A DNA stretch of 64,000 nt from Octopus vulgaris (lineage: Eukaryota): NCBI GenBank assembly GCA_951406725.2, contig OX597816.1, positions 95,232,001 to 95,296,000 on the forward strand, written 5' to 3'. Made by a program: the position numbers and the translations under genes. The notes below the pieces were generated by a model, which was not told where the DNA came from, searched no databases, and saw only the letters and a program-made list of their open reading frames with translations. Positions 22-61,946 of the stretch are shown here, in pieces; positions within the stretch are counted from its first letter, which is position 1, and each line of letters begins with the position of its first letter.

Positions 22-612
22 TTTTTTATGCTGAATTCCTTCACTTCCCTAACTGAAATGACTAGTTCTATCTGTTTTGGACACATTACTGTTTGTTTCA
101 GTTCTTACAACCATCCAGCATCCTTCTTATGCTCCTTGTCTTTGTTCCAGATGTCACACCGGAACCTTTGACTTTCAATGTTATCTGGTATCAACTTTTC
201 ATCTGTACACACTCCATTTATTTCTTTATAGGATCTCTTCTGATCTACTCTGAATAACCTATTCTGCTGGTATCCCTTCATTCTTTGGTCGTATCTTACT
301 ATCTTTGCTTTCTTTGCAACGAGGCGCTGTTTCAGTTCCTCCATTACCAATTTCGGGCCCTTTCTTTCAATATCATACTTGCTGTTCAGTGCCCTGTATT
401 TTCGTTAGCTTTTAAGATCCTCCTCTTTTCGGTCTAACACAGAAATGTCCTTCGAGAATATATCTGACCTTACCTGTACTCTGCTTTTCCACCATGGATA
501 TTTTCTTTTGTCTGTCGCATTATATTTCTTTTTCTTGACGTCAACACCCACATTTTCTGCTACAACAATACTTGCTGCCTTGATCAAATTGCATGTTTAT
601 GTGATGTTTTTA
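22..612 (-). mobile_element. R4/Dong-clade LINE fragment (family B), region N-terminal to the RT, degenerate
   Basis: Minus ORFs 105..350 (EELKQRLVAKKAKIVRYDQR..QNRLFRVDQKRSYKEI) and 405..587 (IKAAS..PWWKSR) align by eye to ETIKQKVSAKAARIARYEKR..NNMFKNNPKNFYRKI of the adjacent plus-strand element. Contains stops and frameshifts. Confidence 0.8.
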
Positions 613-1422
613 AAGAAACATGAAATTAAAGAAACCAGCATGGTTGAACGTGATACACTCCCTAAAATCCGCAACTCTAACCAAAACATGAAAATAATTG
701 GTAAAATCCGGCTTGCACTTAAGGATATAATTTCAGCTAATGATGTTGATATCACAAATCTCAACCACCTATACTATGCAGCCGCGAAAATCTCAACGAC
801 CCTATGTGGTGTAAAGATTAGAAAACGGCAACATTCCCACAAAAAGCCTTCTTGGCAAGAACGTTTGCAACAACAAATTAAACTATTTAGATCTGACATT
901 GAATATTTGAAAAACCTTAAGGTTCACAAGACTGCCAAACCTACAAAAACCCCCAAATTACTGAAAAAATACAATATGAAAACTATACTTGATATTGATG
1001 CCACCATAGAAACCATCAAACAAAAGGTATCTGCCAAAGCTGCCCGCATAGCGAGGTATGAAAAGCGTGTTAGATTTTTCAAGGACAACAACATGTTCAA
1101 AAATAACCCCAAGAATTTTTACAGGAAGATAGGAAAAACAGCGTTTACTGTAAGGTCTGTACCATCAAAAGAAGTGCAGGGATTTTGGAATAAAATTTGG
1201 GCAGAACAACACACAACGAAAAGACCCCTGGATTGACAAAATATCTACAGAACTGGACTCCTTAGAAGAGCAAAAGTGGGAGGGTGTCAAGGTAGAAGAT
1301 ATAAGATCTGCTCTCAGGAGGTCAAGCAAATGGAAGTCTCCAGGAAAGTATAAAATTCCTAACTTCTGGCTGAATGCCTTCCCAGAGAGCCTGAACTGCA
1401 AACAGAACTGTACAATGATGTT

Positions 1423-2784
1423 TTGCAACACCCTAGTATGATGCCTCCTTGGCTAGTTAATGGGTTAACATTCCTGCTTCCAAAAAGTGAAGAAACAAAT
1501 GAACCAAAAAACTATAGACCCATAACCTGCTTAACAACTATGTATAAAACGCTAACATCTGTCCTGACGGAATATACTTATAGTTTATTAACAGACAGCA
1601 GCATATTCCCTAATGAACAGAAAGGATGTAAACGTGGATCCTACGGCTGTAAAGATCAATTACTCATCAATAAGATGATCTTAGAAGATTGTCACAAACG
1701 ACACAAAATCTTATCAATAGCCTGGATAGACTATAAAAAGGCTTTTGATAGCCTACCACATAGCTGGATTAGGAAATGCCTGGAAATGTATAAGATAGCA
1801 CCGACTCTGCGAAACTTTTTGACTGTAAGTATGAGATCATGGAGAACCACACTAACTCTGAACAGTGACAATGAATCCCTAAATGCTGGTGATGTAAAAA
1901 TTTCATGTGGTATTTTCCAGGGTGACTCACTGTCACCACTCCTCTTTTGTTTAGCCTTAATACCTCTCACAAAACTGCTCAATGACGCGCAGTACGGGTA
2001 TAAAATGTTTGATAAAAATATAAATCATCTCATTTACATGGATGATTTAAAACCTTTTGAAAAAAATGACCAACAACTCAAGGGCTTACTAGCGATAGTC
2101 AAACAATTCAGTGACGACATCAGAATGCAATTCGGCCTCGATAAATGTGCAAAAGCTACCTTTATCAAAGGAAAAATGACAGAAACATCTAACGTTAACC
2201 TCGACCAGCAGAATGCCATAAAAGAACTAGACCCAGCGGAGAGCTACAAGTACCTAGGGGTAATTGAAGGGAACGGAATAAGGCATTCAGAGATGAAGGA
2301 AAGGGTCAGGAGAGAATGTTATCGAAGAGTGAGAGCAATACTCAAGACAGAGCTGAATGCAAAAAACAGGATCGAAGCGATCAATGTATTAGCCATACCA
2401 GTCGTGACTTACAGTTACAATATCGTTAACTGGTCAATTACTGAAATATGTCAGCTTGACAGAAAAATACGAAAACCGATGACAATGCATAGAATGCACC
2501 ACTCTAAGGCAGATGCAGAACGACTTTATCTAACAAGAAAAGAGGGAGGGCGTGGTCTTTTACAACTGGCAATAACAATGAAGATTGCTACAATTGGCCT
2601 AGACACCTACCTGAAAAAGTCTGAGGACTGGATGTTAAAACTTGTCTCAAAATATGAAAACAAGAAAGCATCATACTCAGTAACAAAACAGGCAAAGGAA
2701 TATCTAAGTGAATTCCGAATACAACAAATTTCGGAATTAGAGATAGACATACAAGAAACAAGCACAGAAAAGCTAGGCGCATGA
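1423..2784 (+). pseudogene. Reverse transcriptase part of the R4/Dong ORF, frameshifted from flanking segments
   Basis: 453-aa ORF with the RT motifs including YMDD. Frameshifts near 1165, 1395 and 2775 split the original single ORF. Confidence 0.9.
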
Positions 2785-3593
2785 AAACCTGTGCCAAAAC
2801 TGCGGCCTTAGATATTCTGAATAATAAATGGCAAGAAAAACCTCTCTATTGCAAATACCCAAAGAGAGCGAATAATGCAGATATTGACAAAGCCCTGACC
2901 CATCAATGGCTAATGGCCTCTGGCTTAAAATCTGAAACAGAAGGGTTTATCATAGCAGCTCAAGATCAATGCCTACCAACAAGAAACTACCAGGCCAACA
3001 TATTAAAGAACGGCAGTAGCCCAACGTGTCGTGTATGCCGACAACAAAATGAAACCATTGATCATGTTGTCTCCAAATGCAGTCTTCTAACGCCTACAGA
3101 GTACCTCAACAGGCATGATAGAGCTGCACAATATATTCACTGGGTAATTCGCAGAAACCTGGATTTGCCCCACGAAAAAAACTGGTGGGAACACAATCCA
3201 CCTCCAGTGCCTGAAAATGACCACATCTCACTCCTCTGGAACTTCACCATTCAAACTGACAAAAAGATAGATGTAAATAGGCCAGACATCATATTGAAAG
3301 ACTTCAGACAAAGAACATGCCTCCTCATTGATATGACTGTCCCAATCGATATAAACGTATCTGTCAAGACCTACCAAAAACTGAGCAAATATAAAGATCT
3401 TGAAATAGAAATCAGCAAAATGTGGAACCTGAAGACTAAAACAATACCTGTTGTCATAGGTGCCCTGGGAATGATAGCGAAAGGGGCTGATTGCTACCTA
3501 ACTCAGATACCAGGAAACCCCAAAATGGCAGAACTTCAAAAGATAGTGCTCATGGGAACTGCTCATATCCTACGCAAAATACTCTCTATGTAA
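2781..3593 (+). pseudogene. Zinc knuckle and PD..D restriction-like endonuclease part of the R4/Dong ORF
   Basis: CRVC-x6-IDHVVSKC, RHD, NRPDII, K..KY..L, IPVVIGALG. Confidence 0.9.
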
Positions 3594-15952: not shown

Positions 15953-18809
15953 AATATGTTCCACTTATTGAAAAACCAGAGTCTCGTTGTGAAAACAGGA
16001 AATACACGCTGTATGTTTTCATCGCCAGGCACAAACCGTTGCATTCAGTGCGGAAGTCAAAGCACTATTATGCTTTTCTAAAAATAATTTTCCATGTAGT
16101 TTTTACTTTGTTGGACTGAAATTATTATACACATTTTGAAAGTAATAATCCTTCTCTATTAGTTACTGCAGTTAGAACAGCTACGAAACCCAACCAGACT
16201 AGCTCAATGTTAAAAGCGTAGCTGTAGCTCTTGGGATGGAACTGGTAAAAAAGTAATAAAACTAGAAAATAAAGTTTATACAAAATAAATGCCCACAAAG
16301 TTGAGTTCGTTAGTGTAGCGAGTTGTAATCTATTTTATTCTAAAACAGAATCAACATTAAACGAAGTAATGAAACCTAAAAATTTAGATACAATTGACTG
16401 AAGGAGTGAAAAACACGAATAAGAAAGTAACAAATACAAAAATATCAAAAGCACTATAAATGACAGCAAAAAAAACCCACTATGACCAATAACAATAGTA
16501 AAATCATCATAATTATCAGCAACACATTTTACAGCCGGAATAGTAGTAACAGTGACAACTACTGCATCAATGTCATCATCATCTTTGATTCCACGCCGCA
16601 AATTACTTTGTTAGTTGATTTACTCATGTAAGTAAATTTGATTACAAGTGAATTTTATTAGAAGCTCCACATTTGATGGTGCTTGCTGCATTGAAATTTT
16701 TTGTTTGAAAGTGTTATATAATGGTGACTTTATATTTTAGACATCAGACGTCAGCGGTAGTCCGTGAATTATGCGTCTCAGAGAGATCATATTTCTTCGT
16801 TATTTTTTCATAAAACTTCTGATATATTTTATTTATGAGCAACAAGGGAATGAAGAAATTATCAATGAAAATATATGAATGGGGGTTATTACTAATTTGT
16901 TAGAAGATAAATTCTCATTAATATTCTGGGTAGTCAATAGAAAGTAGTCAAAGAATCACTAGAATGATTCTCGTGATGTTAAAATTTAATTGATACCCTC
17001 TACCATTATTATTATATATGTGAAGGGTATTCGTTATGCGTAAGAAAGTCGTATGACATCACTATAGTAAACAAGTCATTTTCATCAATATTTCGAATCA
17101 AGATGGAAATGAAAATTTAGGTTATATGGTGAAATTAAAAATAACAAAATTGTAGTCTACATAATTACTCTAAAGTCTTCAAAAATTATATCATCCGTGT
17201 AGCAAATGTAAAGATAAAATTACAGATAATAGTAAACACCTGCATCTTTTGACCCTATATTATGATTTTTAACCAATAACAATGTTGCTAGAGAGAAGAC
17301 TAAATGTTCAACTCTGAACTCAGGTTATTTTGTTAAACAGATACCCCATTTTGTTGTAGGTAGTATTCTTTATGGAATATATCATTATGCTGAAAAATGT
17401 CATTGTATTTTGTTGATTGAATGAATTATGCTGATTGCATATAATGAAAACTGATTAAAAGTTTATGACAGGAAGGAAAGAAAGTGAGAGAAAAGGAGGG
17501 AGAGTGACTCAATGTTTGAAAGCGAGACAATTTTTATTCAGTTGAGTATCATATACTTTCACGCATTGAAACTATTCTAATAGTCGGCTTCTTAACTCAG
17601 ACATCTTTCTTCCTGTCGTTTCATATACAAAGATTATCTAGATGTGAAGGGCTTTTTTGTCCATTTAAAAAAAATTTAAGATGTTAGTGTGAGATTTGTG
17701 AGATAAATATGGTTGGTATTCCTAGCAGGCAAAACAACTTTGTAGAGATACCCTTGTTAGCTTATGTAAATGTATTAGTGCATTAGATCATTTAAATTAA
17801 GGTTGGTCATAATTATTCTTATAGAATGATGATGAACTACTCCGGTCACCGAGAAAATAAATACCAGCAATGTAATCATAAAAGCTTTAAAAATGTCTGG
17901 CATAGGTGTTGACTGCTTTTATATTCATACAGCTATTTATATCTGTTAGAAAGTGCCTCGCAGCAGGAAGTTCTAATGACTTAGCAGTATTATAAGACAG
18001 GATATATTTTGGAAGAGTTTGAAAGAGTAAAACTGAAATGAACAATGAAATATTGCAAGAAGAACTAAAATGCTGGCAAATTGACAATAGTAATATAAAT
18101 TTGAATGATCAATAATGATAATATTTTACTCACAAAGACAATCTCCCTCAAAAAGTTGATTAAGTGATCATTCAGTTTCCAACGCCGATAGAAATAATGC
18201 CTGTCAGGTTAGAACGATAAGTTCAAGTTAAATAAATGGCATAAAATCCTGTAAATAGAGAAGAAACGATGCCAAATATTACTCAATAGAATAATAATTT
18301 ACTTGCAGCCAAAGTCGATAGAAAGTAATTAATGTCGATATATGGGTCACAAATTCTTATAGGTAGTCTTTGTATGTAGACAAAACTGATGTTTAAATAA
18401 TAATAGAGTAGGTTTAATTATTTTATTCTCGTCAAGCTTCGTTAGCGTAAGTATAGCTGTTACTATTGATTGTTGGCTCCGTAGTAACAGATTACTATAT
18501 AGACATGTTCGTAAAACGCACTGAGTGGCGAAGGGAAACGATATTAATTGATAATTTAAGCATAAATATATGCTAACCAGATATTTAAAATAATATAACG
18601 ATGGGTTTGATTGGTTCTAATGAATTCAGCATAAAAGAATAATCACACGATTATTAGAAAAAAGATTAGGTGTTCAGGTGACAGTTGAACATATTTTACC
18701 TAAGCAAAGCAAGGGAGAAAACTTCGAGCGGTTTAACTAAATAATGAGGACATCTTAATAAACGCAAATTGACATGAGAACCAGATAAGAGAACAAGAAA
18801 ACTAAACGG

Positions 18810-20175
18810 GACCGAGCCTACAAAAAAACTGTCCCTAAAAGGTCTGGTGGAGGTGGCGAACGCGTAGATCATGTCCATCATCTACTACCGCCTGACCGTC
18901 GTGCCTTGTCTCAACTCTACCATCACCAAACTGGAACGCATTCTCTGCCGCTTCTTGTGGAAAGGATGCGTTCCGATGGTCAGTCGATCCGTTTGCTGCC
19001 AACACCCGTTAAAAGGATAGCTGGGCATGTGGTGGCTGATGATGTGCAGATATGCGCTGAGACTGCGACATCTCCAGCTCTACGTAAACGACTGTGAATA
19101 GGTGTGGTCGCCGTTTGTGAGGCGCGCTTTCCCTCACCTCATCTCCATGGCCGAACTGCAATCGTGGATCAAAAAGAGGCTGAGGAAGGGCGAATGGCAC
19201 CGCGAGTGTTACATTGCTCTCGAGAAACTATGCCGTCCCAGGTCGACCTTGTGCGACTGCAACACAACCAAAGCATTCTATAGGGGCTTAGTGGAGGGGA
19301 GGTGCGGCGACAATCTCGCGGCGAACCTGGGCGTCGACGAGGAACACCTGACCCGCCTGTTTAAAATGACTTTCTGGCGGGAACCTATGGACAACTTCCT
19401 GAGATTACTGGCCTGGTAGTGTTATCGAGAAGCGATGCCCGTTCAGAACAAGCTCTACAGGCTTGGCTCGAGAAACCCGGGGCCGACCTGCCCGAGAAGC
19501 GGTCAGAGCGACGAAACCGTTCTGCGCGCACTCTTGTAGTGTCCAACCATTTCCGACCTGTGGGCGTATGTCGAGCGGCCGCTATCGCGTGTGGGACGAG
19601 TCGGTTGATCAACCGAGTCTCGCGTGAATATTTTCGCGTCTCCTTCCTTCAAACGGGAAGGAAGAGCTATTTTTATCGTACTTGTGGCTATGGGGAAAGA
19701 ATGTGTATGGTGGACGCGTCTGAAAGGTCTAGAGACAAACACTTTCTTCACATCAACTTATTCAAGTATGAAAGAGGGAAGTCTTGTCTAGTGAATGTTT
19801 CAAAGAAAAAGAAAAAAAGGTGGGTGAATGTAGCAAGGATGGTACGTGTGAATGACGGAGCCACCTTGAGCATAATCCTATGAACCAGAAAAAGAAATGA
19901 AAAAAGAGAGTCACTTACTGTAATGTGTTTTTTGCATGACATTATTGCCCGAGGTTACTGTGGATAAACCTAATCTGTTTCCCCTTTTTACATTATGATA
20001 TTTCTGTGATACACAATCCCTATTAATCGGGTTCCTTTTTCCCCTTTCTTTCCACGATCCCTTTTAATCGAAATTCTACCCCGCCTTTTTTCTCCTTCTT
20101 TTCCAAAAATAAAAGCTCTACTTTGTATTTTGTCCCCTCTGTGTTCAGCCCTGTGTAGCTAATAAAGAGACGTAT
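18810..20175 (+). mobile_element. 5'-truncated L1/Tx1-clade LINE (post-RT region, CCHC knuckle, 3'UTR)
   Basis: Broken translation KLSLKG.VEVANA..IIYYRLTVVPC..KLERILCRFLWKG..CCQHPLKG.LGM and TCPR.GQSDETVL.AL..CP. GC-rich body, pyrimidine-rich UTR, AATAAA at 20161. Confidence 0.85.
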
Positions 20176-22680: not shown

Positions 22681-25600
22681 AGTGTTTGTGTGTGTGTATG
22701 TGTGCTTGTGTGTGCGCGCGCGCGAACTTGCTTTAATATAATTTTGGCAACACCAAAATAAATGAGTTGCAAATCCGATGGATACTCAAACTCTTTTTTG
22801 TGTCATCAAAGTATTCTCCAAAGCAATTATAGAGTAAAATTACAAATAGTTTTTTATAGAGTTAATTGATAAGTTTGTATCAACCTCAATAGCTTTTACA
22901 CTTAAAAGAAAACAAGAAAAGTACATGTTGACACAAGTACTTACACACCCTTCATCCACTACCAGAATACTCGTAATATTAGGTAATCATATCACAAAAT
23001 TGTCATGTCTTGGTTGAGAATAATGTAAAAAGAGAAGACAAGTGAGATAAAGAGAGAGAAAGAGAGGGAAGGAGAGAGAGAGAGAGAAAGAAAGAGGGAG
23101 AGTGTGAGAGTGAGTTCATGCGTGTATGTGTATGCTGAATGAACAATTACCTGTTATATAAAAGAAATCCGCTTGTATTTGTCAACCAACTAAACAACAA
23201 GAAACAAAAGATGACGCCAGTGAAGAAACCGAAGTCGGTTTTCACCTTTGTGAAAACGGAGTCATATCATGCAGCTGTCATAAAAATGCAATCATTGAAA
23301 CAACTGTAACATCAAACGAAAACACAATCCTTAGAGAATAAGAAAATGTCCTTGCATAGTGGCAACCGATCCAAACAACAGAAAAGAGAGATTGCAGATC
23401 TATGGAAGGAAAAGGGAAAAGATAAAAGATTTGATGTTGGGTAAATGTGTAGCAAACTGCATATAAAGAAAAGCAAAGAAAATAAAACGCATCATTGTTT
23501 AGTTAAAATCTTGTCACTTCGAATTTACCATTTACATCATTGATTGACTAGAGACTATTAAATAAAACTTGTGCAAGATCCTTTGGTTTATGTCTATTTT
23601 ATTCAAAGAACTCGACAGATTTATTGCTGCAATGTGTAGTTGATTGTGAGTATTTCTTTTGTGAGTACTGCTTGTGACAGTTGAAATATTAACTTGCTTA
23701 CTACAGGGCATTAATATCGATACGATTTGTATGAGGCCTGTAGATGTAAAAACGTGGGAACAACAATCAATTTTCCATTTCATGAAAGTACAGTCACTGA
23801 CTCCGTATGAGGTACACATCACATATATAACATTACACAGTGTATAACAAGATTCAGAAACTTAGTGAATAAAGTTTAGGCATTAGTGCTTTGAAATCAG
23901 AGCATAAACTAATCTAAATGTCAGTTAATATGAGATGCAAAGTAATTTTTCTTTTTGGTTATACAATCTTTCAAGTTAGCAGATATTTGGACAAAAGAAT
24001 CCATTCTCTATTTTCAAACCATAAGTACATAGCTGGAGTAACTGGAAAGATTTCAATTCAAGTAGTTTAGATCATAATCATATCATAAATTGTGTTGCAG
24101 ATTCTTCGGTTTTGTATTCAATTTATTTGGGTTCTACAAAATTCTCATTCATACATTTTATGTAATAAAGCGAAAATATTAATGATAGAGATAAAATTTT
24201 CTATCGAAACTATTTTAAAGAAATGATTGCCATTAAATAAGTTTATTTAGGAGAATTTTTGACAGAAGAAATAATAGCATTTTATGATTTCTGTAAATGT
24301 AGTACATAAACATCTCCATAAAAAGTAAATCTTGCGTGCTGATCATTGTGAATCAGATTAGATTTAACCAAGTTGAATTTTGAAGAATTCTTAGTCGCTT
24401 TTTTTTTTTATATAATGACGTTCATATTATTTAATTTTCTCTTAGCATTTATGTATCACTTAAAGTGTTTTTCAGAAAAAGAAAAAACTACTAATATAAA
24501 TTTTAGAAGCATAGTGCATAAGAAATGCATTTGTTTTTTGAACAGAAGTTGCAGCTATATATTCTAATGGCTTGCATAGCAATTTCGACTGTTTTATTGG
24601 AATATCTAGCCCTTACATTCAGATATTATATTAGGTTTGTATTATAAAAATTAGATATACTTTGTAAAAATTTATTAAAGCGGTATATTTAACATACATA
24701 TGTGGTTTTTTCCACTGTCTTGTTACGATGAAAAAGAACCTATGTCATCAAATATCACAGACATTAGACGCGTAATTGTTGGCAGAGTTATTTTGTTGGA
24801 AAAACGATATCATCTAGCAACCAAATGTCGTCTGTTTTCTGTTAATTCAGTGTTTGAATATGTGCATATGCGTATTACACCGAGCTTCATATCGCTTTTT
24901 CAAGCAGCGTTTACACCTTGGAGGAAATATCGTTTTACCTTGCCCTAACAGCCCCTAAATTGATACGGGCGTAGTATAATTGGCAGTAGAGAAAATGCAC
25001 TTTAATACTCATATTAAATTCTAGCTTATTGAAGAAAGAAATGTATCTAATTCCCCCATTTCTTCATAGCTTTCATATATGCTATTATCCAAAAATTTGA
25101 AATTAAATTCTGCGATTGCTACCCAGAAAGCGTCCCAACAGTGTTAAGTAAACTCACAAGCACCTCACTTTCAGTTACTGTTCTTATTTTAGGCTCACCA
25201 ACGGTATTTGCCTTCAGATTCTCTCGGCTTAGAGCAGGAAATTGTCCACATATATTCGAAAGAACCAGTTAACATGTCTAAAGTTTTAACAAAATGTTTC
25301 ATTAAACTTACATTGATATCAAGTACTAGGAGTAATGTGCTATATAGTTTTTACGAAGAGAGTATTCATAATATTGTTTTTTCCAGTATCAAAGTCCCTT
25401 TTTTTTCAGGCCATTTCTTTCCCACCCAGTAGTTTCGTTTCTTTCGAGGATTCTATAAACACAGGGAATAAGGAAATTTAATGCAACCGTTCAGTTGACA
25501 AAGCAGTATTAAGTTCATTGTCAAATCCTTATATACTGTCGAATTGTATTCAAATTATTCAAGTCATTTCAGTATCACTCTCATACTTCCATCGCTTTCT

Positions 25601-25767: not shown

Positions 25768-26144
25768 TATACTTTTATTTGTTTCAGTCACTAGACTTTA
25801 GTCATGCTGGGACACAGCCTTGAAGAATTTTAGCCGAACGAATCAACCCGAATGCTCAATTTTTAAGCTTGACCCTTATTCTGTCGGTCTCTTTTGTGTT
25901 CTCTAAGTCACAGGAGCTAAACAAACCAACACCGGTTATCAAGCGGTGGTAGGGGACAAATTCAGACACGCACACACACACACGACGGGCTTCATTCAGT
26001 TTCCGTCTACCAAGTCCACTTACAAGGCTTTGGTCGCCCTTAGGCTATAGTAGAAGACACTTGCCAAGGTGTCACGCAGTGGGACTGAACCCGGAACCGT
26101 ATGGTTGGGAAGCAAACTTCTTACCACACAGGTACGCCTGCGCC
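25768..26144 (-). mobile_element. tRNA-derived SINE family A, full length
   Basis: Head tgtgtggtaagaagtttgcttccc..ggttcagtcccactgcgtg, central (TG)n, tail ..gactgaaacaa. Multicopy in the window. Confidence 0.9.
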
Positions 26145-27644: not shown

Positions 27645-28052
27645 TACTCTTTTACTCTTTTACTTGTTTCAGTCATTTGACTTCGGCCATGCTGGGGCAC
27701 CGCCTTTAGTCGAGGAAATTGACCCCAGGACTTATTCTTTGTAAGCCTAGTATTTATTCTATCGGTCTCTTTTGCCGAACCGCTAAGTTACGGGCACATA
27801 AACATACCAGCATCAGCTGTCAAGCAATGTTTGGTGAGGGGGGCAAACAGACACACAAATACAAACACATATATATATATACATATACATATATACGACG
27901 GGCTTCTTTCAGTTTCCGTCTACCAAATCCACTCACAAGGCTTTGGTCGGCCCGAGGCTATAGCAGAAGACACTTGCCCAAGGTACCACGCAGTGGGACT
28001 GAACCCGGAACCATTTGGTTGGTAAGCAAGCTACTTACCACACAGCCACTCC
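27645..28052 (-). mobile_element. tRNA-derived SINE family A, full length
   Basis: Same architecture. Tail ggcggtgccccagcatggccgaagtcaaatgactgaaac plus (gtaaaaga)n. Confidence 0.92.
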
Positions 28053-32140: not shown

Positions 32141-32332
32141 AAAAATCAAAAAAATAAATTTTTGGCAAAACTGATATTGGAGCCAAATTGACTAAACGTA
32201 TCAATGAGATTTTACTTAAATTTGTCGAGAGTGTGACCATCAAAGCCCTGAGATATTCTCACCCCATCATTTTGGCATAGACTTCCGCGCACGTGCGCAC
32301 ACATGTGTATATATGTATATGTGTAAATATAT

Positions 32333-32389
<57 letters not shown>

Positions 32390-32537
32390 AAAAGCAATAA
32401 AGATTCAAGTTAATTTAAATGAATTAACTTGAATATGGTACCTAACTTAGATGCACCAAAAGAAAACTATACTGATTTAACAATACAGTAATGTGGGGTG
32501 ATTATAAGCGAGAAAGAAGCAACAAGAATGGATAGGT

Positions 32538-32628
32538 TTTTAGTACAATCGTTTCATACAAGGACAGGCTTTATTAAAAGTTGCAAAAATTACAGCATAT
32601 AAACGTGTCCCGTACTCATCAGCTAAAA
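32538..32628 (-). ncRNA. Type I hammerhead ribozyme (P1 left arm)
   Basis: Reverse complement of the 32878-32967 motif. Confidence 0.8.
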
Positions 32629-32877
32629 TACATGTGAGTTCTCTAGACATCCTAGTGGTTGAGGCTATACTCATGAAGTAATGTAGATAATTAAGTAACA
32701 TAAACAGATTTCCAAAGTTCATTAAAGTTCATTAAAGATGATGTACAGTCTTATCATAGAATTTTAAAAAGTTTTAATAGCATCACAGAGAAGGTGACCT
32801 GTTTATGTTACTTAATTATCTACATTACTTCATGAGTATAGCCTCAACCACTAGGATGTCTAGAGAACTCACATGTA

Positions 32878-32967
32878 TTTTAGCTGATGAGTACGGGACA
32901 CGTTTATATGCTGTAATTTTGCAACTTTTAATAAAGCCTGTCCTTGTATGAAACGATTGTACTAAAA
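32878..32967 (+). ncRNA. Type I hammerhead ribozyme (P1 right arm)
   Basis: ttttag-CTGATGA-gtacgggaca..tgtccttgtat-GAAA-cgattg-TA-ctaaaa: 6-bp stem I, core, stem II, short stem III, GUA cleavage triplet ending at 32961. Confidence 0.82.
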
Positions 32968-32991
32968 ACCTATCCATTCTTGTTGCTTCTT

Positions 32992-32995
<4 letters not shown>

Positions 32996-33062
<67 letters not shown>

Positions 33063-33103
33063 CATATATAAATATATATGTATATGTATATACAACATAT
33101 CCA

Positions 33104-33198
<95 letters not shown>

Positions 33199-33200
33199 AT
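32996..33200 (+). repeat. (TA)n plus (ATCT)n microsatellite
   Basis: Directly visible. Confidence 0.95.
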
Positions 33201-33679
33201 ATTCCCAGACTGCATGTATACATATATATTTGTAAATGTAGTTATGGACACGTAGTTATGACTGCTCTCAAAGGAGAAAGCGTGTGCGACAAATCTTAGT
33301 GAAAGCTGGTGCTTTAAATTCCGTTGCCAAATAATGGACGTGTGGGAAGTGAAGTCACGTGACTGATACACATTGCTCTCACAATTTTTTGAAATAATAC
33401 ACTGAACGATATTGATTTTTTTAGTCTAGATTGCTAGATACTATAAAATATATATACATGAACAACATACTAATACTATACTTTACAAAGGCTACATACT
33501 TTTTTATAGATATGTGCTAGACAAATGATGCATATTATAATAATGTGTAGGACAGTATCGTGATGAAAAGCCATAGATTGCTGCACAAAATGCAACAAAT
33601 GCAATCTGTGTCCAACACTCGACAGTGTAATCAACTGGGTCATATATATGATTGCTTACACCTCAGCACTCATTATCAT

Positions 33680-33846
33680 GGTGCAGTCGTGCTTGTGTGG
33701 TAAGCCATTTGCTTCCCACTGACCTGGTTCTGAGTTCCGTCCCACTGTGTGGTACCTTCAGCAAGTTACTTCTACTATAGCCCCGGACCGACCAAAGCCT
33801 TGTGAGTAGACTTAGTAGACAGAAACAAAAAGAATCTTGTCGTATA
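33680..33846 (+). mobile_element. SINE family A, 5' half
   Basis: Aligns to the head of the 27645-28052 copy and ends at the central microsatellite. Confidence 0.85.
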
Positions 33847-33897
33847 CATACATACATACATACATACATACATACATACATACATGAACGCACGCAT

Positions 33898-33949
<52 letters not shown>

Positions 33950-33978
33950 AAGAAAAAAGCAACAAGAATGGATTAGTT

Positions 33979-34069
33979 ATTCAGTACAATTGTTTCATAC
34001 GAAGAACAGCTTTATTAAAAGCTGCAAATATTGCAGCAAATACAAGTGTCCCGTATTCATCAGCCAAAA
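33979..34069 (-). ncRNA. Type I hammerhead ribozyme (P2 body arm)
   Basis: Minus strand: ttttgg-CTGATGA-atacgggaca..tgttcttcgtat-GAAA-caattg-TA-ctgaat. Stem III is palindromic. Confidence 0.8.
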
Positions 34070-35500
34070 CACATATGAGTTTTCCAAGCATCCTAGGGGG
34101 TGAGGCTACACTAATGAAGTATCGAAGAGAGTTCTATAAAAAGTTAGATTGTAAGCAGAATTCAAAAGTTCTCTAATGATGCACACTTTTATAAAAGGTT
34201 TTAAAAAAAGTTTGTTAGCTTCACAGAAAAGGTAAATCCATCCATAATAATGCAGATGTAATTTCCGGAGATATGAGGAGATATTTCATACTCAGAGACG
34301 ATGAATTTATCCATAATAATGTAGATGTAATTTCTGATATATGAGAAGATGCTGATCCCATTTCTGTTCATTTCACAAAACTACTATGCTAGAAGAAGAG
34401 ATTGACTATATTGGCTAAAAGAAGTTAGTGAAGCAGAAAACCGCCCAAATAGGGCATTATGGGACAAATGAAAGGAAGGGGTGTAAGTACACAACCTACA
34501 AAGAATAGTTTATTTCTGTGGTGACAGAAAATCTAGGTCAGAGTTGCAGGAATCTGAGATTTATAAAAGAGAACATTACTTTTGACCAGCATACAGCTGT
34601 TAACTGCCAATCCTACATAGTTAAAAGCAGATAAAAGAATATAAAGAGAACAAAAGATAGTATCAAAGGGGTCAAAGGCTATCAGTAGAGGAAAATACAT
34701 TAAGAGGTTTAAGTGCAATACTAGAACGGGAGGTTATTTATTTATTTATTATTGTTACTATTTATACAAAAGTTTATACATTGTAAGACAGACTTTAGGT
34801 CTATACCTAGAGGTCAATTAATTTCTATAGTAAAAGGTGTGAGAGTATTGTTTATTCAAAAAATAGTGAAAATCATAGTGAAAATTCCTTATATTATTAT
34901 TAAGAGAGTAGCATTACTTATTAAACTTAGAATAGAATTAGGAAGTATTAGCAACTTATTTGATTTAAGTTGGGTTAATTAAATTAGATTAAAATTAGAT
35001 TAAATTAAATTAACTATATAGTCAATTAAAATTTTTGGCAACGTACAAATACTATTTATTTCTTTGTGTTCTAAAACAGGTACAGTTAAAAAGAAAGAAC
35101 ACCGGTGGAAGAGCTAACAGATATCTATTTAAAATATGTTAGAGTTTTGCTTTTTTAGTAAAAACAAGATAGACCTAGCTCCAAACGATTATTCTATACG
35201 ATTTTTATTTAAAATATTTAAGAGTCTTAATTTTCGAGTGAATACAAAATAGACATAATTCTATACCGTTATTTAACAAATTTTTATTTTTCCTATGCCT
35301 TAGAATTTCATAATTCTCCATGGAGCAGAGTTGGCAACCTACCCTGTTATTTCTATAAGGCATCGCTCTTCTAACTATTTCCCAATTAAAGTTATATTTA
35401 ATATTATTATTATTTTTATTATTATATTTAATATTATTATTATTTTTATTATTCATGAGTGTAGCCTCACCCCCTAGGATGCTTGGAAAACTCATATGTG

Positions 35501-35591
35501 TTTTGGCTGATGAATACGGGACACTTGTATTTGCTGCAATATTTGCAGCTTTTAATAAAGCTGTTCTTCGTATGAAACAATTGTACTCAAC
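35501..35591 (+). ncRNA. Type I hammerhead ribozyme (P2 inverted arm), stem I weakened
   Basis: ttttgg-CTGATGA-atacgggaca..tgttcttcgtat-GAAA-caattg-TA-ctcaac. Confidence 0.72.
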
Positions 35592-35832
35592 AACTAATCC
35601 ATTCTTGTCGCTTTTTTCTTGTTTATAATCACCCCACATTATTTTATGGTTAATACCATATAGATTTCTGGTGCAAATAAGTTAAGTACCGCATTCATGT
35701 GAATTCATTGGAACTCACTTGAATCTTAATTGTTTTTACTGATATATATATATATATATATATAAATTAATTTTTACGAATGAGTGGACAAACGAAAGAA
35801 AGGGGTACACAAAACATTTAGTCGTAGCTACA

Positions 35833-36320
35833 TATTATTATTATTATTATTATTATTATTGAGTGAGAAAATATACGAAGCCCAGTATACCCATTATGAC
35901 TACCCGTCTGATAAGGGTACACCAGGCACATGCATCACAACCATATGTGCGCGATATGGTGATCTCATGTCAAGATAAACAGTGCATGACCTTGCAGGTG
36001 GGGCCCAGTTAGAATTTCCTTCTGGTCAAGCAACCCATCCCGCTCAAAAGGTCCCTGATAAGGGTTGTTTAAGGATGTTGAGCGAAACACCCATGTTTTC
36101 AGATGTGAATTATTCAAACCCCAAAGTCCTCTTCCCCCTATTTTTCTTGGTACATACAGTCTGTCTGTGTCACTTTTTGGGTGGAGTGACTCATATCTCG
36201 TTAGCAACTTCCTTGTCTTTCTGTCTGAGCTGTTTATTTCATCTACTGTCCAATCGAAGGAGTGAAACCGCCCAGCTGTTTATAGCTTTGATCTTATTCC
36301 AAAATTTATTTTTCACAAGG
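35833..36320 (-). mobile_element. R4/Dong-type RT fragment fused to a non-coding (TAA)n-tailed segment
   Basis: NKIKAINSWAVSLLR..LHPKSDTDRLYVPRKIGGRGL (36320-36125), then ~265 nt non-coding, then (TAA)n at 35835-35860. Confidence 0.75.
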
Positions 36321-37717: not shown

Positions 37718-39690
37718 TCTGTCTAGTTTCAGCTCAGAGCTGCGGCCATGCTGATGCACCGCCGTTTTGTTGCACAGTTATTACTAAGAGCCTCCTCTAA
37801 TATGTGGCACTTGGTGAAGAATGGAGTTTGATGTAGCTACCCTCATTTGCATCTCTTGCCGTGAGGTAGGTTCATCTGGGACTCTCGTCAGGAAGCGGTC
37901 CAGCTTTGATTTTAAAAAAACCCTACATCTACTTTGTGCAAGTTCGACAGACTCTTTGGGAGAATATTAAAGAGCTGTGGGCCCCTGAAACCCAGGCTGT
38001 TGCAGTAACTGGTCTTGAGGCATGATGGCTTTGGAACTCTGCAGTGTCGTCCCGTTCTGGCATTGGTGTAGCTTTGAATGCCAAAATTTGGCACAATTCC
38101 TTCCAGTATCTTCCTGATATATATTACTGCATACCTCTTCCATCTTCTCTCCAGGGAGTAGAGTCTTAGCTGTTTCATCCTTTCCCAGTAGCTGAGCTGT
38201 TGCAAAGAGACAATCTTCTTTGTGAATCTTCTGTGGATTGCTTCAAAGTCCGCTGTTAATTTAACACTGGTGGGTGACCATAGCTGTGAGCAGTAATCCA
38301 AGCGGCTGAGGACGAATGTCCGCCAGAGGACCATCATGGTTTCCTTATCGCTGGTTCCGAATGTTCTTAGGATCCATCCAGCCATTCGTCTGCACTTTGT
38401 CGCCATCCTGGTAATGTGCACTTGGAAAGAGGTATCATCACTCATGTCGATACCCAGGTCCCTCACTGGTTTAGACTCTGCGATTGAAATTCCTTGTGGA
38501 CCGGTTTACCCTGTAAGTTTCATATTCAGTTTTGGATGCTGGCAGCTCAGGGCTTGGAATTTTTCAGCATTAAACTGCATATTATTTTCCTCAGCCCATC
38601 TGTAAATTGAGTCCAACTCCTGCTGCAGGTGTGCAACATCACTAGGGTTCTGTATTTTCTGCGAGACTTTCGTATCATCTGCATAGCTTGCAAGGGTGTC
38701 TATCCGGGCATTTGAGGGCATATCTGAGAGGGCCACTTTAAAAAGCAGTGGTCCCAAGAAAGTGCCCTATTTGTGTGTTCATAGAGGTGGATCCCTTAGC
38801 CACTACTGCCTGACTCCTATCTTTCAGAAGGTCATGTAACCACTCTCTAAGTTTTTCAGCTATGCCAAAGTCACGCAGTTTGTGGCATATCATACCATGA
38901 TCCACCTTGTCAAAAGCTTTTGCAAAATCAACATTTGATTAGTTGAGTAACTGCCTCAACACCCAGTCATAATGTTGTAAGAGCTGGGTCAGGCAGCTCC
39001 TACCTGGTCGAAAACCATGCTGAGTATCACTCAGCAAGTTATTTTCTTCAAGGAATGCGATTAATTTCTTTCTGACTATCCGTTCCATGACTTTGCTGAT
39101 GTGTGAAGTCAGAGAGATAGACCTATAGTTTTTGGCATCTGTTCTACTTCCCCCTTTAACTTCCCCCTTCATGTATTGGGCATATTATTCCCTCCTTCAG
39201 CTTGCTTGGCAGTTTGCCATTTGTAAGAAAGCTCTGGAAGAGATTCTGGAGGGGTTTTGCCAGGGAATGCTTACACGATTTGAGGAGGATTGCTGGGAAA
39301 CCATCAGGACCAGCAGTTGAGTTTGTGTCCACTTCATCTATGGCTAGTAGTATATCTTCTTCGCTAATGTCAATGTATTCCATTGTAACTGCCTCGCTGG
39401 TTATAGGTGAGGCGGCAAAGAAGTCTACTGGTTCTTTCACTTGTGTGTTTCAACGGCGTGGTAAAGACACTTTTGAACTGATCATTCAGTATCTCACTGA
39501 TCTTAGTTGGACTGTCTGTGAGGGAGCCATCCTTTTGAAGGAGGTGTCCTATCTTGCAGTGTACTGAGGCTGTTTCTTTCGTGTAATGAAAGAAGGCCTT
39601 TGGGTTTGATTTAATGTTTTTTATAACCCAGGCTTCTTTGTCTGCTTTCTCTCTCAAATAGGATTGTTGCAACCTTGCTTCAGTTTTTGG
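37717..39690 (-). mobile_element. 5'-truncated CR1-group LINE (RT domain and 3'UTR), frameshifted with deletions
   Basis: AGPDG, NYRSISLTSHISKVMERIV, QHGFRPGRSCLTQL, DFAKAFDKVDH, GPLLF, YADDTK, RDLGI, SRLDYCSQLWSP, LYSLERR. 3' end runs into (TA)n. Confidence 0.92.
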
Positions 39691-46061: not shown

Positions 46062-46510
46062 TCTTGTATCTTTTACTTGTTTCAGTCATTAGACAGCGGA
46101 CATGTTGGAGCACCGCTTTGAAGAACTTTTAGTCGAATGAAGGGACTCTAGTATTTATTGTATCGGTTTCTTTTGATGAACCGCTGTGTTACGGGGGCGT
46201 AAACGCACCATCAACAGTGGTAGGGGACAGACATAGACACATACACACACGCACACACACACACATACTCACGCACACACACACTCACGCGCACACACGT
46301 ACACACACATGCACAAGCACACACACATACACACACAAATACACATATACAACGGGTCTCTTTAAGTTTCCGTCTACTAAATACACTTACAAAGGTTTGG
46401 TCGGCCCGAGGTAATCGTAGAAGACACTTGCCCTGCGTGCCACGCAGTGGGACTGAATCCGGGACCATGTGACTGAAAGGCAAGCTTCTTACTACATAAT
46501 CATGTCTGCA
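46062..46510 (-). mobile_element. SINE family A, full length
   Basis: Aligns to the other family A copies, with central (TG)n. Confidence 0.88.
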
Positions 46511-48043: not shown

Positions 48044-48180
48044 TATATTGCGATAAGAAAAGAAATGGAGCAACAATTAACAATTAGAAGTTGATCATTG
48101 GTATTAAATGATCATAGTTTAATACCAATGATCAACTTTTAATTAATTGTTGGTCCATTTTTTTTCTTATCTGAATATAT
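48044..48180. repeat. Imperfect fold-back palindrome next to a microsatellite
   Basis: gataagaaaa..aagttgatcattggtattaaa / tttaataccaatgatcaactt..ttttcttatc. Confidence 0.85.
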
Positions 48181-52536: not shown

Positions 52537-52685
52537 GTGATAGCACCTGAATCGCTAGAAATAAGAGTTAAAAAGCTTTCACAGCCACAGAAAGCACTAT
52601 TTCATATACCGACTGTATATAAAAATGTGCTTTCTGCGTGTTTAAGGGGTCTTAGCTCTTATTTCTAGCAATGTAAGTACTATCC
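52537..52685. repeat. Imperfect fold-back palindrome
   Basis: gctagaaataagagttaa..cagaaagcac / gtgctttctg..ttagctcttatttctagc. Confidence 0.8.
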
Positions 52686-52909: not shown

Positions 52910-52953
<44 letters not shown>

Positions 52954-53154
52954 AGATCCAGGGATCGAGGTGTAGGGAGAAGGTTAGCTGTAAGCAATCC
53001 GTAGTAAATATGAAAAAACAATTTTCAGGGACAATAGGGATTTATTGAGACGGAAGTTTGTGGCTGTTTTTTCGTATTGAAGTACGTTAAACTGAAAAAG
53101 GTTCTTTTTATATTTCACAGTAGGCGACCAGGGTTGCCGGGTATACGAATAAGA

Positions 53155-53375
53155 ATACAAAAGTTACAGAATGGAGTAAATAAAATCCAGGCTACAAATG
53201 TTTCATAGCCAGAAGAACCTCAGAAGCGGTAAATATCCAGACGAAATGTATACCGCAAGCTGAAGAGTACCCTGTGGTATACACCTCGCCTGGATATTTA
53301 CCACTTCTGAGGTTTCGCTCGTTATGAAACATATGTAGTCCGGATCTTATCCACTCCATTCCGTAAATCTTGTGC
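53155..53375. repeat. Diverged fold-back element with a truncated hammerhead-like motif
   Basis: ~95-bp imperfect arms. CTGAAGA at 53260 and GAAA-catatg-TA at 53326-53337. Stem I 5' strand missing. Confidence 0.75.
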
Positions 53376-53419
53376 GTGTGTATATATATATGGGTGTGTG
53401 TGATTGTGTATAGAAGAAT

Positions 53420-53557
53420 ATATTAATAAAAGGAATTCCAACCGTGTCTGATTTTCACGTTTTATTTACAATCTTATAATGATATATTATAAGATAATAT
53501 ATCATTATAAGATTGTAAATAAAACGTGAAAATCAGACAAGGTTGGAATTCTTTTTA

Positions 53558-53562
<5 letters not shown>
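53420..53562. repeat. Near-perfect palindrome ending in (TA)n
   Basis: gaattccaacc.tgtctgattttcacgttttatttacaatcttataatgatatattat and its reverse complement. Confidence 0.92.
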
Positions 53563-53603
<41 letters not shown>

Positions 53604-53614
<11 letters not shown>

Positions 53615-53768
53615 GAGGGCATTACTATTTATAAATGTCACACGCTAGGAAGGACTCTGAAAGCAAAAACTACCAAAATAAATAAACACAATATTTTGGT
53701 TGTTTTAACTTTAAGAGTCCCTCCTAGTGTGTGGCATTTATGTATAATAATGACTTCTATATAATATA
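53604..53768. repeat. Imperfect fold-back palindrome starting from (TA)n
   Basis: tatattatatagagggcattact..ctaggaaggactct..accaaaata / tattttggt..agagtccctcctag..aatgacttctatataatata. Confidence 0.85.
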
Positions 53769-55201
53769 AATAAATATGTCTAAGTGAAAAAATTGTAGGA
53801 TTTTTTTCGTCTTATGACGTTTTTCACGCTAACTATTTGATAAATTCTTATAAAGATTTTATCCTATTTTTAAGTTGTATATATATATATATATAAATAG
53901 GCATCATAAACTCTTAGAGAAATCATCAGGTAAAAGCATTCTGACCAGTTGTAATTTTATTACTGCTGGAGGCCATTCAGAAGCCGTGTTAATAGATCAG
54001 AAAATATGTTTTTCATTAAACTTTTTGGTAATGACTACTTCCTTCCAGTTATTCTAAGAAACCAAACAATTCATCAAAGACAATTTGCGTGAAATGATTA
54101 ATTAAATATAAATGCATGTGTTAGGCACTGTTCTGAAATCTAGGACGTAAACCCCAGAGGCAACATTGCAGTCGGAAAAGAAGCACAATACGTCAGATGC
54201 GATTGCAGTATTTAGCTTTTCAAAAAAAAAAAAAAAACAACAAAAAACAAAAGAAACAAAAAAATACAAAAAAAAAGAAAAACCAAATAAAAAACAAATG
54301 TTTTCTCTAGGATTTATGACAAAAATTTATTTGAGAGTAAGAAAAAATACATTTTCATGCATGCTATGTAGAATGTGATATTTGTGAGGTAGTTGTGGAA
54401 CCTCGTCATTCTCAGTAACGAACGAATATATTTTAGTCTCAGCAGTTTAAATGTAATGGACCTATACACAACTATGACCTATGCTATACTATGCTATAAT
54501 GAAGATTTATATAAGCACATAGCTTCTTACATTGAATAGATAAGAGATGTGGTTGTAGGATATCAATCTTTTCTCAAGGGTATTTATTAACTATACTGAC
54601 TTGAATCAGGTTTGGAGACGTAATGGTTATATCGTATATTGCATGTCAGTATAGAATATAATTAGCTATAATTAAGCATATTCAATGGAAATGTGAGATT
54701 GGTGGTAACTAAATAGGCAGCTCTCTGCATTATTACTAGTTTGAAGTATATTTAAGGTGTTAGACAGACGACCGCGGCAAACAAATTGAATTCATAATCC
54801 ATCCCGGGTACCTAACTTAAAATAGGCACATCGTGATAGGCATAAATTACGTCTGTAAGCAGCGAAACTGCTAACTTTAATAAACTATATCTTTTATTAA
54901 GTGGTGAATATAGAGTCGTTATGAACAGTTTTAATTTCATTTATACTTACAAGATTATTTCAAGTGAGCACTGAAAATCAATCAAATACTTGCCAATAAT
55001 TCAACTACCTAATTGGGCATACATGTTAATAACTACGAGAAGCATGATACTGGTAGATAAATGTTTTTAGAAAACAACCGGTACTTCAATAATGGTAAGA
55101 GTTAAGCCAAGATCTAATTTTAACTTATTAATATAACACTTTATTAATTTAGCCAGCTGCGCTTCTTAGATAAGACATCCCTGTAAATATGATATTAGAC
55201 T

Positions 55202-60394: not shown

Positions 60395-61362
60395 ATAAAT
60401 CAGGTACTTGATTGATATTTCCTGTTCCTGGATTGCAAGCACATGCCCTTCAAAGTGGGAGGTAATAATCCGGCTATTCGTCCATGATAAACTGCTGTGA
60501 TGATCGATGTTACTAATATCACGGAGCTTTCTGGTAACATGTCCATGCATAGTCTTCTGCTCGTATAGGCTCATCCTTTCATCTCATGATACGTTGCGGT
60601 AGAGTTGTGCGACTTCTTTGGGTATGTATTCTAGGTTATCAGTCAAAGAGTGTTGCTTAGGGAGCTGCCTTCCAAGTCTTATCATGTTATTAGCTTCATG
60701 TATGCAAACTTGGTCAAGGGATGCACTTCGACGCTTGGTGGTTAAAAGATGTTGCCGAAGGGATATGATGCGACATTCAAAGGCAGTCTGGATCGATGTT
60801 AAGCCTCTGTCGCCTTGTTTTCGTTTTATGTACAGGCGGTCTACGTCGCTGTTTATGAGGAAATTATGTGTGCTTGTTAATATTTTTTGGGTTTTCACAT
60901 TAATGTCTCGGATCTCATCAAGCGTCCAATCAAACAGCCTAAATGTTGAAAAGAGTTCTAGCATTGCAAACACATTTTGGGCCACTGTTTTATTGAATGC
61001 AGAGTGTTGTGAGGTTCAAAAGTTACTTTATTCGGCTGTAATACTCTTTAGCGACACTGTTTTGTTACAGGTGCCACTGTAAGATATATTTTCATCCACC
61101 CCTAGATACTTGTAGCGTTCCTCGTCAGATGCAGAGGAAACAGTCAAATCATTGACGAAGATGCTACTACTCTGATTTCTCCCTTTTCTTAACCATATAA
61201 CATCATTTATCCTGACCAAACACCAACCCTACATCCTTTGAGAATGTTGTAACTAGGTCAAGGGTCTTTTTCATCTCATGCATATTCTTTGCATAAAGTT
61301 TTAAGTCATCCACAAAGAAACAATGTGTAATTTTGGTATTTCTGTTTCTTTGTGAACCAGAA
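60395..61362 (-). mobile_element. R4-clade LINE fragment (RT catalytic domain to linker; third family)
   Basis: ITHCFFVDDLKLYAK..FSKDVGLVFGQDK, YKYLGVDE, NSDVDRLYIKRKQG.RGL, KTMHG, FEG..AIQEQEI. Confidence 0.88.
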
Positions 61363-61369
61363 ATATGTG

Positions 61370-61505
61370 AGTATGTATGTATGTATGTATGTATGTATGT
61401 ATGTATGTATGTATGTATGTATGTATGTATGTATGTATGTATGTATGTATGTATTTTTGTATGTATGTATGTATGGATGTATGTATGTATGGATGGATGT
61501 TTGTA
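61370..61505 (+). repeat. (TATG)n microsatellite
   Basis: Directly visible. Confidence 0.95.
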
Positions 61506-61946
61506 TGAATATATTATCTTGTCACGCACATAGTGTCTTTATTTCATTAATAAGCCCATTAGCTGCAGGTTTGCGTCGTCCAGGACAACGTCTCTTTTTG
61601 ATGCCTAGTGTTAAAACACTGAATATCTAAAATCAGGCAAGGCAATTTGCCTCGGATTGATATTTCACCGTCTTTCAGCGCTCAGCAGCACCGTTCACAC
61701 TCAAGTCATCACGGAACAAGCCGAATGGTTGGTCTGCGATATATATGCAAATAATGTAAAGTTCTATTTGCTGATGGCTATGGCATAGAGCATGCTGAAC
61801 AAAATGAAATTTTGAATTAAAAGCAGCTCTAATAATATCCATCTTATAGATGTCACGTATATAGTGTAGATGTTCTGTTTACGGATCCATCAGCAGCGGG
61901 AAACCGTCCGGGGAAATGTCCCTTGTTAGCGCTGCATGTATATATG

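Follow-up and report, generated by a model that had tools for sequence, protein, structure and literature searches.

What produced the paired, oppositely oriented hammerhead ribozyme motifs found in two neighbouring (TA)n-flanked insertions of the Octopus vulgaris genome, and do these pairs act on transcripts that run through them? The insertions, P1 and P2, lie within a 64,000-nt stretch (the window; GCA_951406725.2, contig OX597816.1, positions 95,232,001 to 95,296,000 of the forward strand), by whose numbering all positions are given. It is considered very probable that they are two separate 5'-truncated insertions of a Penelope-like element (PLE), likely of the Hydra clade, each made of head-to-head copies of the element's 3' end, probably laid down by two (TA)n-primed reverse transcriptions, and that the hammerheads are passengers predicted to be sequestered. 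The features of both insertions are as follows.

32340..32387, no strand: (TA)n target tract to the left of P1
32388..32797, minus strand: P1 long arm, a 5'-truncated copy with 3' UTR end, hammerhead and tail (from alignment to P2)
32388..32502, minus strand: P1 tail, 115 nt, three predicted hairpins, ending 156 nt past the predicted cut
32538..32628, minus strand: type I hammerhead motif of the P1 long arm; core from 32622, predicted cut after 32544, stem I of 6 bp, helix II region of 60 nt
32799..32995, plus strand: P1 short arm, an inverted 5'-truncated copy stopping 34 nt past the predicted cut
32878..32967, plus strand: type I hammerhead motif of the P1 short arm; core from 32884, predicted cut after 32961, helix II region of 59 nt
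32996..33058, no strand: (TA)n tract to the right of P1
33907..33946, no strand: (TA)n tract to the left of P2, belonging to a very high-copy repeat (about 33680-33843) as its microsatellite tail
33943..35420, minus strand: P2 long arm with endonuclease C-terminus, 3' UTR and hammerhead, no tail, stopping 42 nt past the predicted cut
33980..34068, minus strand: type I hammerhead motif of the P2 long arm; core from 34063, predicted cut after 33985, stem I of 5 bp including two G-U pairs
34119..35204, minus strand: P2 3' UTR, about 1.1 kb, a region covered by multi-copy contigs
35205..35420, minus strand: C-terminus of a Hydra-type GIY-YIG endonuclease, about 65-70 codons, W..CxxC..E..LLN..CxH (homology search and alignment)
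35392..35451, no strand: P2 junction, where the endonuclease fragment meets the inverted arm, with two copies of a 30-nt AT-rich unit
35452..35742, plus strand: P2 short arm, an inverted 5'-truncated copy with tail (35628-35742), stopping 157 nt past the predicted cut
35501..35591, plus strand: type I hammerhead motif of the P2 short arm; core from 35507, predicted cut after 35585, U.C in stem I at 35588
35743..35764, no strand: (TA)n tract to the right of P2

The original prediction of two separate insertions, each flanked by (TA)n and each with inverted arms, was confirmed, as (TA)n borders P1 and P2 at both ends; its coordinates and motifs were correct to within 1 nt, with P1 starting at 32388. 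Alignment of the four arms, each oriented in the sense of its hammerhead, showed that each insertion consists of two 5'-truncated copies of one 3' end placed head to head. The P1 arms (32510-32707 and 32799-32995) are identical at 197 of 197 aligned bases, plus one 1-nt gap, and the P2 arms (33943-34118 and 35452-35627) at 172 of 176, while P1 differs from P2 at 47 of 284 aligned bases. Since the arms within an insertion are thus 98-100% alike, both halves of each insertion are attributed to one source variant, and each insertion to a single event. The P1 long arm, whose 5' end is placed around 32797 with a precision of about 2 nt, can be aligned with two parts of P2, 33943-34233 (76.5%) and 35439-35737 (81%), and the 91-nt "spacer" of P1 is further 3' UTR of this arm, alignable to P2. 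The pairing of the arms is real but they are asymmetric, as one arm per insertion (long in P1, short in P2) carries a 115-nt tail that the earlier description left out. Measured from the predicted cut, one end of each insertion lies at 34 nt (P1) or 42 nt (P2) and the other at 156 or 157 nt. The 1.1 kb at 34119..35204 of P2 is counted as family sequence because multi-copy contigs cover it. Two decayed tandem duplications were also observed in P2, one at 35120-35289 (74% over 91 nt), which copies the end of the endonuclease ORF, and one at 34224-34350 (81% over 59 nt).

Assignment of the family was based on the endonuclease fragment of P2. Its stop codon (35205-35207) is followed by 1.1 kb and then by a sense hammerhead on the same strand, and the GIY-YIG motif proper has been lost through 5' truncation. 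Searching the frame 35208-35420(-) among 1.84 billion representatives identified 54 relatives (E<=0.001, the best at 7.6e-9); the identity of the fragment to its relatives is 32-45%. When 26 of them were aligned with it, the pattern W..CxLC..E..LLN..CxH was maintained, the second C and the E being kept in 26/26 and the W, first C, LN, C and H in at least 90%. Pfam gave no match on the fragment; the predicted link between the P2 arm and a GIY-YIG C-terminus is therefore one that homology confirms and to which Pfam alone is blind. A word-indexed protein search for longer relatives yielded 65 candidates, of which none passed. The longest relative is a protein of Argonauta hians, with weak GIY-YIG and RT Pfam matches below the cut-off. 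A full-length relative of 708 aa (P0056, in the cluster of match P0027) possesses RWK, DKT, the RT core, CxCX5C and the terminal CxxC/CxH.

The hallmarks listed for the Hydra clade, in the available portion of its description, are RWK, DKT, a CxCX5C linker, a terminal CxxC/CxH, a divergent RT4 and no CCHH, and the supplement records (TA)n insertion for 26/27 Hydra families, one of them from Octopus bimaculoides (PMC8557442). P2 35208-35420(-) shows the clade's CxxC and CxH on either side of a conserved E and N, and insertion into (TA)n was found at both ends of both insertions. The RWK, DKT, RT4 and linker regions have been lost from P1 and P2 by truncation, and the window contains no RT of this family. 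The predicted Penelope-like identity is thereby supported and, through the C-terminal CxxC and CxH, narrowed to this clade: P1 and P2 are likely Hydra-clade members, a call that rests on the last ~70 codons of the ORF. Membership of the Naiad/Chlamys PLEs (N-terminal endonuclease, no canonical hammerhead) was rejected as the endonuclease is C-terminal and a hammerhead is present, and that of the non-LTR retrozymes (tandem direct repeats, non-coding) as the arms are inverted and P2 holds an endonuclease fragment. A 158-codon open frame (35205-35681) spanning antisense tail, arm and endonuclease was likewise discarded as a gene, its antisense frame being lost in P1. An annotation of Octopus vulgaris describes 30 recently active Penelope families and, in its available text, mentions neither Hydra nor ribozymes (PMC13282606).

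A descriptor scan found three hammerheads with an unbroken stem I, with cuts after 32961(+), 33985(-) and 32544(-); 30 Markov-sampled windows gave 1 match in total. The fourth motif (core 35507) was missed because of the U.C mismatch at its third stem I pair, at 35588. Of four full hammerheads originally proposed, three thus stand with intact stem I at the proposed cut sites, whereas the fourth (35585+) is mismatched. The type I hallmarks, a catalytic core and three helices with the open end in helix I, were observed, and 3/4 arms carry a canonical hammerhead with uninterrupted stem I close to the 3' end, helix II being unusually long (a region of 59-60 nt in all four motifs). No hammerhead occurred among the 73 Rfam matches at E<=1 (miRNA, snoRNA and one UTR model, mostly on simple repeats), likely because of the long helix II, which suggests that Rfam-based hammerhead counts overlook whole families. 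All four motifs contain an 8-nt self-complementary helix III segment with predicted homo- or heterodimer pairing of -5.8 to -6.4 kcal/mol, in support of the palindromic, dimer-type helix III expected of Penelope-like hammerheads. As a monomer the hammerhead fold is predicted to lie above the best fold by 4 kcal/mol in P1 and 7-12 kcal/mol in P2, and, taken in isolation, the hammerhead stretches have at most a slight folding advantage over shuffles (z +0.3 to -1.8).

The three base-pair differences between P1 and P2 that had been named are real. Of the wider claim that such differences mostly keep pairing, it holds that five one-sided changes still pair, but two to three pairs break and there are no two-sided changes. 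With two independent variants only, preservation of pairs did not stand out from random substitution (P = 0.11-0.17), the 15 core bases show no difference (P = 0.07), and conservation of structure between the P1 and P2 hammerheads is not significant. Among contig variants, 0 of the 40 substitutions listed (of 203) and 0 of the 12 indels listed (of 31) fall inside a core. A sequence-only model of the four arms, run over the window, recovered the four arms alone, the next best hit having E 0.011. Folding of the tail was stronger than in shuffles for P1 (z -5.3, 0/200 shuffles as good) and less so for P2 (z -1.9, 7/200); the consensus has 22 pairs with two two-sided changes, a borderline result against a random-substitution null (P 0.05-0.09).

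Contigs from four public runs with three organism labels were compared with 32250-35850 at 80% likeness. In run X1 the summed contig depth, which is not a copy number, was ~52 over unique flank, against 3e5-1.1e6 for P1, 4e4-1.2e5 for the arms of P2 and 1e3-1.2e4 for the P2 body. The P1/P2 family is multi-copy and skewed toward its 3' end. P1 is near an abundant variant, single contigs showing 2 differences from P1 over 166-233 nt (233 nt in one of them), and P2 has many sites at which most contigs depart from it. Neither the P1 nor the P2 junction is spanned by any contig piece listed, and the P1 junction is matched by 0 of the 15 joints listed (of 28). P2 was inserted in the microsatellite tail of the repeat at 33680-33843, an extremely high-copy short repeat (contig depth ~4e6) with further copies at ~25960-26140, ~27850-28045 and ~46300-46500, which we take to resemble an octopus tRNA-type SINE.

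A third head-to-head pair was identified at 53157-53373, with the same 3' core motif on both arms. This motif has 6 matches in the window against 0.08 expected, a figure to be read with the pattern having been drawn from P1 and P2, so that only two matches are new. On the plus strand a 5' core lies at 53260+, 59 nt upstream of the 3' core, and cuts are predicted after 53337+ and 53193-. The arms are identical at 82 of 101 positions (81%), and the right arm has a perfectly palindromic helix III. The insertion (52951-53375) sits between TA tracts and has one short end and one longer extension: the right arm begins within ~2 nt of the core and the left arm extends ~240 nt past the cut. Because similarity to P1 is weak (23/1000 shuffles as good) and the helix II base is not formed in the best fold, the pair is considered a probable decayed relative. 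Palindromes of 140-180 bp are also present at 53418-53566 (95% self-complementary), 53595-53777 (79%), 52539-52684 (73%) and 48044-48179 (85%), the first two adjoining a TA tract; these four may be other Penelope-like stubs or MITEs. Seven metagenome loci from a pattern scan were rejected as relatives, none having blastn similarity to P1 or P2 or a tblastn match. Hammerhead-like cores with long spacers, each motif seen twice and unrelated to P1 or P2, were noted among them at L001:3001-3086 and L007:3001-3086, and at L002 and L006:3001-3068.

How inverted repeats arise in Penelope-like elements was called an open task in the description of the clade (PMC8557442). For P1 and P2 the element protein would cut both strands within the TA tract; the two DNA ends would then prime downstream of the hammerhead cut site, at a distance of ~35-42 nt in one case and ~156 nt in the other, on two RNAs or on the upstream and downstream repeats of one partial-tandem RNA, and both cDNAs would terminate early before being joined. 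For an anole Penelope-like protein, cleavage and extension of both strands of AT-rich DNA have been shown in vitro, with reverse transcription starting from two internal positions that delimit the tail; the protein does so without need for hammerhead cleavage, which is itself protein-dependent (Frangieh et al. 2024, PMC11167929). The two end positions in P1 and P2 fit these two start sites. Within the parent element the hammerhead would form part of the repeat and act as dimers joined via the palindromic helix III, perhaps assisted by the protein, while in the P1 and P2 stubs it would be a passenger, held in a predicted 176-197 bp duplex on read-through. Target-site duplications are unreadable inside (TA)n.

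The inverted halves could instead come from self-priming, in which cDNA or antisense RNA folds back and is copied, a proposal made for rotifer Penelope elements on the basis of the palindromes found where copies join head to head (PMC3846280). P1 by itself also fits fold-back copying, its short arm lying fully within the long arm and its junction having a 7-nt near-palindrome at 32793-32799; its loop, however, is 91 nt and asymmetric, not a tight hairpin. P2 is the more informative, as its arms are non-nested: the tailed arm has 115 nt extra and the long arm 1.3 kb extra. Each arm thus holds sequence absent from the other, which excludes simple fold-back copying and favours two primings, and self-priming is regarded as unlikely overall. 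We infer two priming events per insertion from two loci, too few for a family-wide rule of two ends; non-nested arms like those of P2, counted genome-wide, would separate the fold-back and two-priming models. It has also been considered that P1 is a non-autonomous MITE-like or retrozyme-like unit, mobile as a whole 608-bp palindrome, in keeping with P1-like depth far above that of the P2 body and with contigs that differ from P1 at 2 sites in 166-233 nt. This is judged very unlikely, given that the spacer is ordinary 3' UTR alignable to P2, that the P1 junction went unspanned and unmatched among the contig pieces and joints listed, and that tandem direct repeats are the arrangement reported for non-LTR retrozymes (bioRxiv 10.64898/2026.07.22.740005).

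With two primings preferred as the origin, the remaining matter is whether the hammerhead pairs do anything at this locus. The original prediction held that transcription from either side would meet a ribozyme and would also form long dsRNA, affecting a host intron or supplying editing substrates. In such a functional two-way cassette, read-through would be cut by the paired hammerheads, and the duplex would act on a host intron or be retained as an editing substrate. Each insertion does have one sense hammerhead per strand, a duplex of 176-197 bp is predicted, and P1 and P2 together give two sense motifs on each strand, 2.6 kb (+) and 1.4 kb (-) apart, whose helix III halves are predicted to pair as an 8-bp heteroduplex (-6.1 kcal/mol). 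The head-to-head layout nevertheless means that the antisense arm is transcribed first in both directions. Four nascent transcripts, ended 12 nt past U16.1, were subjected to minimum-energy folding, and in 4/4 all 11 core bases were predicted to pair with the upstream antisense arm, with a cost of 117-134 kcal/mol for forcing the hammerhead. Since the antisense arm is predicted to pair with the core, a transcript would form either the duplex or an active ribozyme, and prediction favours the duplex, with most certainty in P1, whose loop is 91 nt. These folds are equilibrium predictions, and in P2, with arms 1.3 kb apart, the hammerhead could fold before the duplex zips. The long dsRNA of a read-through transcript is thus upheld as a prediction, while the same duplex is predicted to sequester the ribozyme that transcription was said to meet from either side.

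Further points weigh against a cassette. The stem I mismatch of P2 and the four differences between its arms are what neutral decay would give, and the layout is a routine product of Penelope insertion. Published metazoan motifs have shown no monomer cleavage and low dimer cleavage (PMC4209133). The proposed effect on a host intron found no footing, as no host exon was found in the 150 frames scanned of 178 that were stop-free, not of low complexity and at least 62 aa long, a length below which exons would escape; the matches were four RT fragments, one zinc-finger frame and one sub-threshold match. Elsewhere in the window, a long frameshifted LINE-like ORF set with RT-like sequence was seen at 409-3590 (+), RT fragments at 38509-39184 and 61206-61538, and weak blast matches at 24387 and 49064. 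The region 18600-20100, considered as a possible first exon, is by eye presumably a decayed LINE. One run, guessed to be RNA, has family contigs and no cover over the unique flank 33339-33580, a pattern compatible with either transcription or silence of the locus; A>G plus T>C changes made up 32/124 of the changed positions there and 41/146, 46/163 and 44/160 in the other three, in contigs that drop rare variants. The duplex could serve as an editing substrate if the locus were transcribed. The regulatory reading is weak, and a functional cassette is considered very improbable.

A broader, doubtful picture may be drawn, in which P1 and P2 belong to a young, very abundant Hydra-clade family with a long-helix-II hammerhead that standard models overlook, nearly every insertion being two-primed from the two ends of a structured 115-nt tail, so that thousands of near-perfect ~200-bp hairpins would silence their own ribozyme and feed A-to-I editing. 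If this were true, the genomic copies of such a family would be a direct record of the step that makes the inverted repeat.

Comparison with known systems places P1 and P2 among published forms, as far as the accessible parts of the respective papers extend. They share with Hydra-1_Obim and Penelope-13_HM insertion into (TA)n, a type I hammerhead close to the 3' end and the endonuclease CxxC/E/N/CxH signature (Craig et al. 2021, PMC8557442). Penelope-13_HM, in addition, has an inverted 5'-truncated copy and hence hammerheads on both strands, as do P1 and P2, and the short end at 34-42 nt past the cut is close to the values of about 35 and 45 nt derived from the positions listed for Hydra-1_Obim and Hydra-1_Ajap (PMC8557442). 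Judged by eye, Hydra-1_Obim is a family separate from that of P1 and P2. The helix II region of 59-60 nt contrasts with about 11-25 nt in the listed Hydra hammerheads, and the long end at 156-157 nt with about 87 and 114 nt in two listed Hydra consensi; a 3' UTR of ~1.1 kb, as in P2, is unlike that of the Hydra-1_Obim/Penelope-13_HM group, and long loop II regions also occur in the PLE-X1 elements of spike moss (PMC8557442).

The minimal type I hammerheads of metazoan PLEs have the same short palindromic helix III, a helix I of 4-6 bp and an enlarged helix II; in P1 and P2, which are predicted motifs, helix II is much longer and contains an inner hairpin (PMC4209133). Dual hammerheads on opposite strands, 100-700 bp apart, were described by Cervera and De la Pena in 2014 (PMC4209133), and an inverted repeat with a tail at one end was found to be typical by Arkhipova et al. 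in 2013 (PMC3846280). P1 and P2 have the same head-to-head repeat and single-end tail as Penelope insertions with an inverted pLTR and tail, although their tail is 115 nt with three predicted hairpins versus 30-40 nt in those elements (PMC3846280, PMC11167929). The asparagine-rich codons of the P2 junction unit (35392-35451), which is in frame with the endonuclease, recall the N-rich inserts of rotifer Penelope elements (PMC3846280). The opposite orientation of the hammerheads is no special feature but that of the usual inverted 5'-truncated copy (PMC8557442, PMC3846280, PMC4209133). A literature search, with most subscription papers outside its coverage, returned no paper on this hammerhead Penelope family or on two-priming in Penelope elements. 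The architecture is already published for the Hydra clade, of which P1 and P2 are the expected product and most likely ordinary transposon debris; new, if minor, are a long-helix-II family missed by Rfam, a structured tail of 115 nt and a likely third, older copy in the window.
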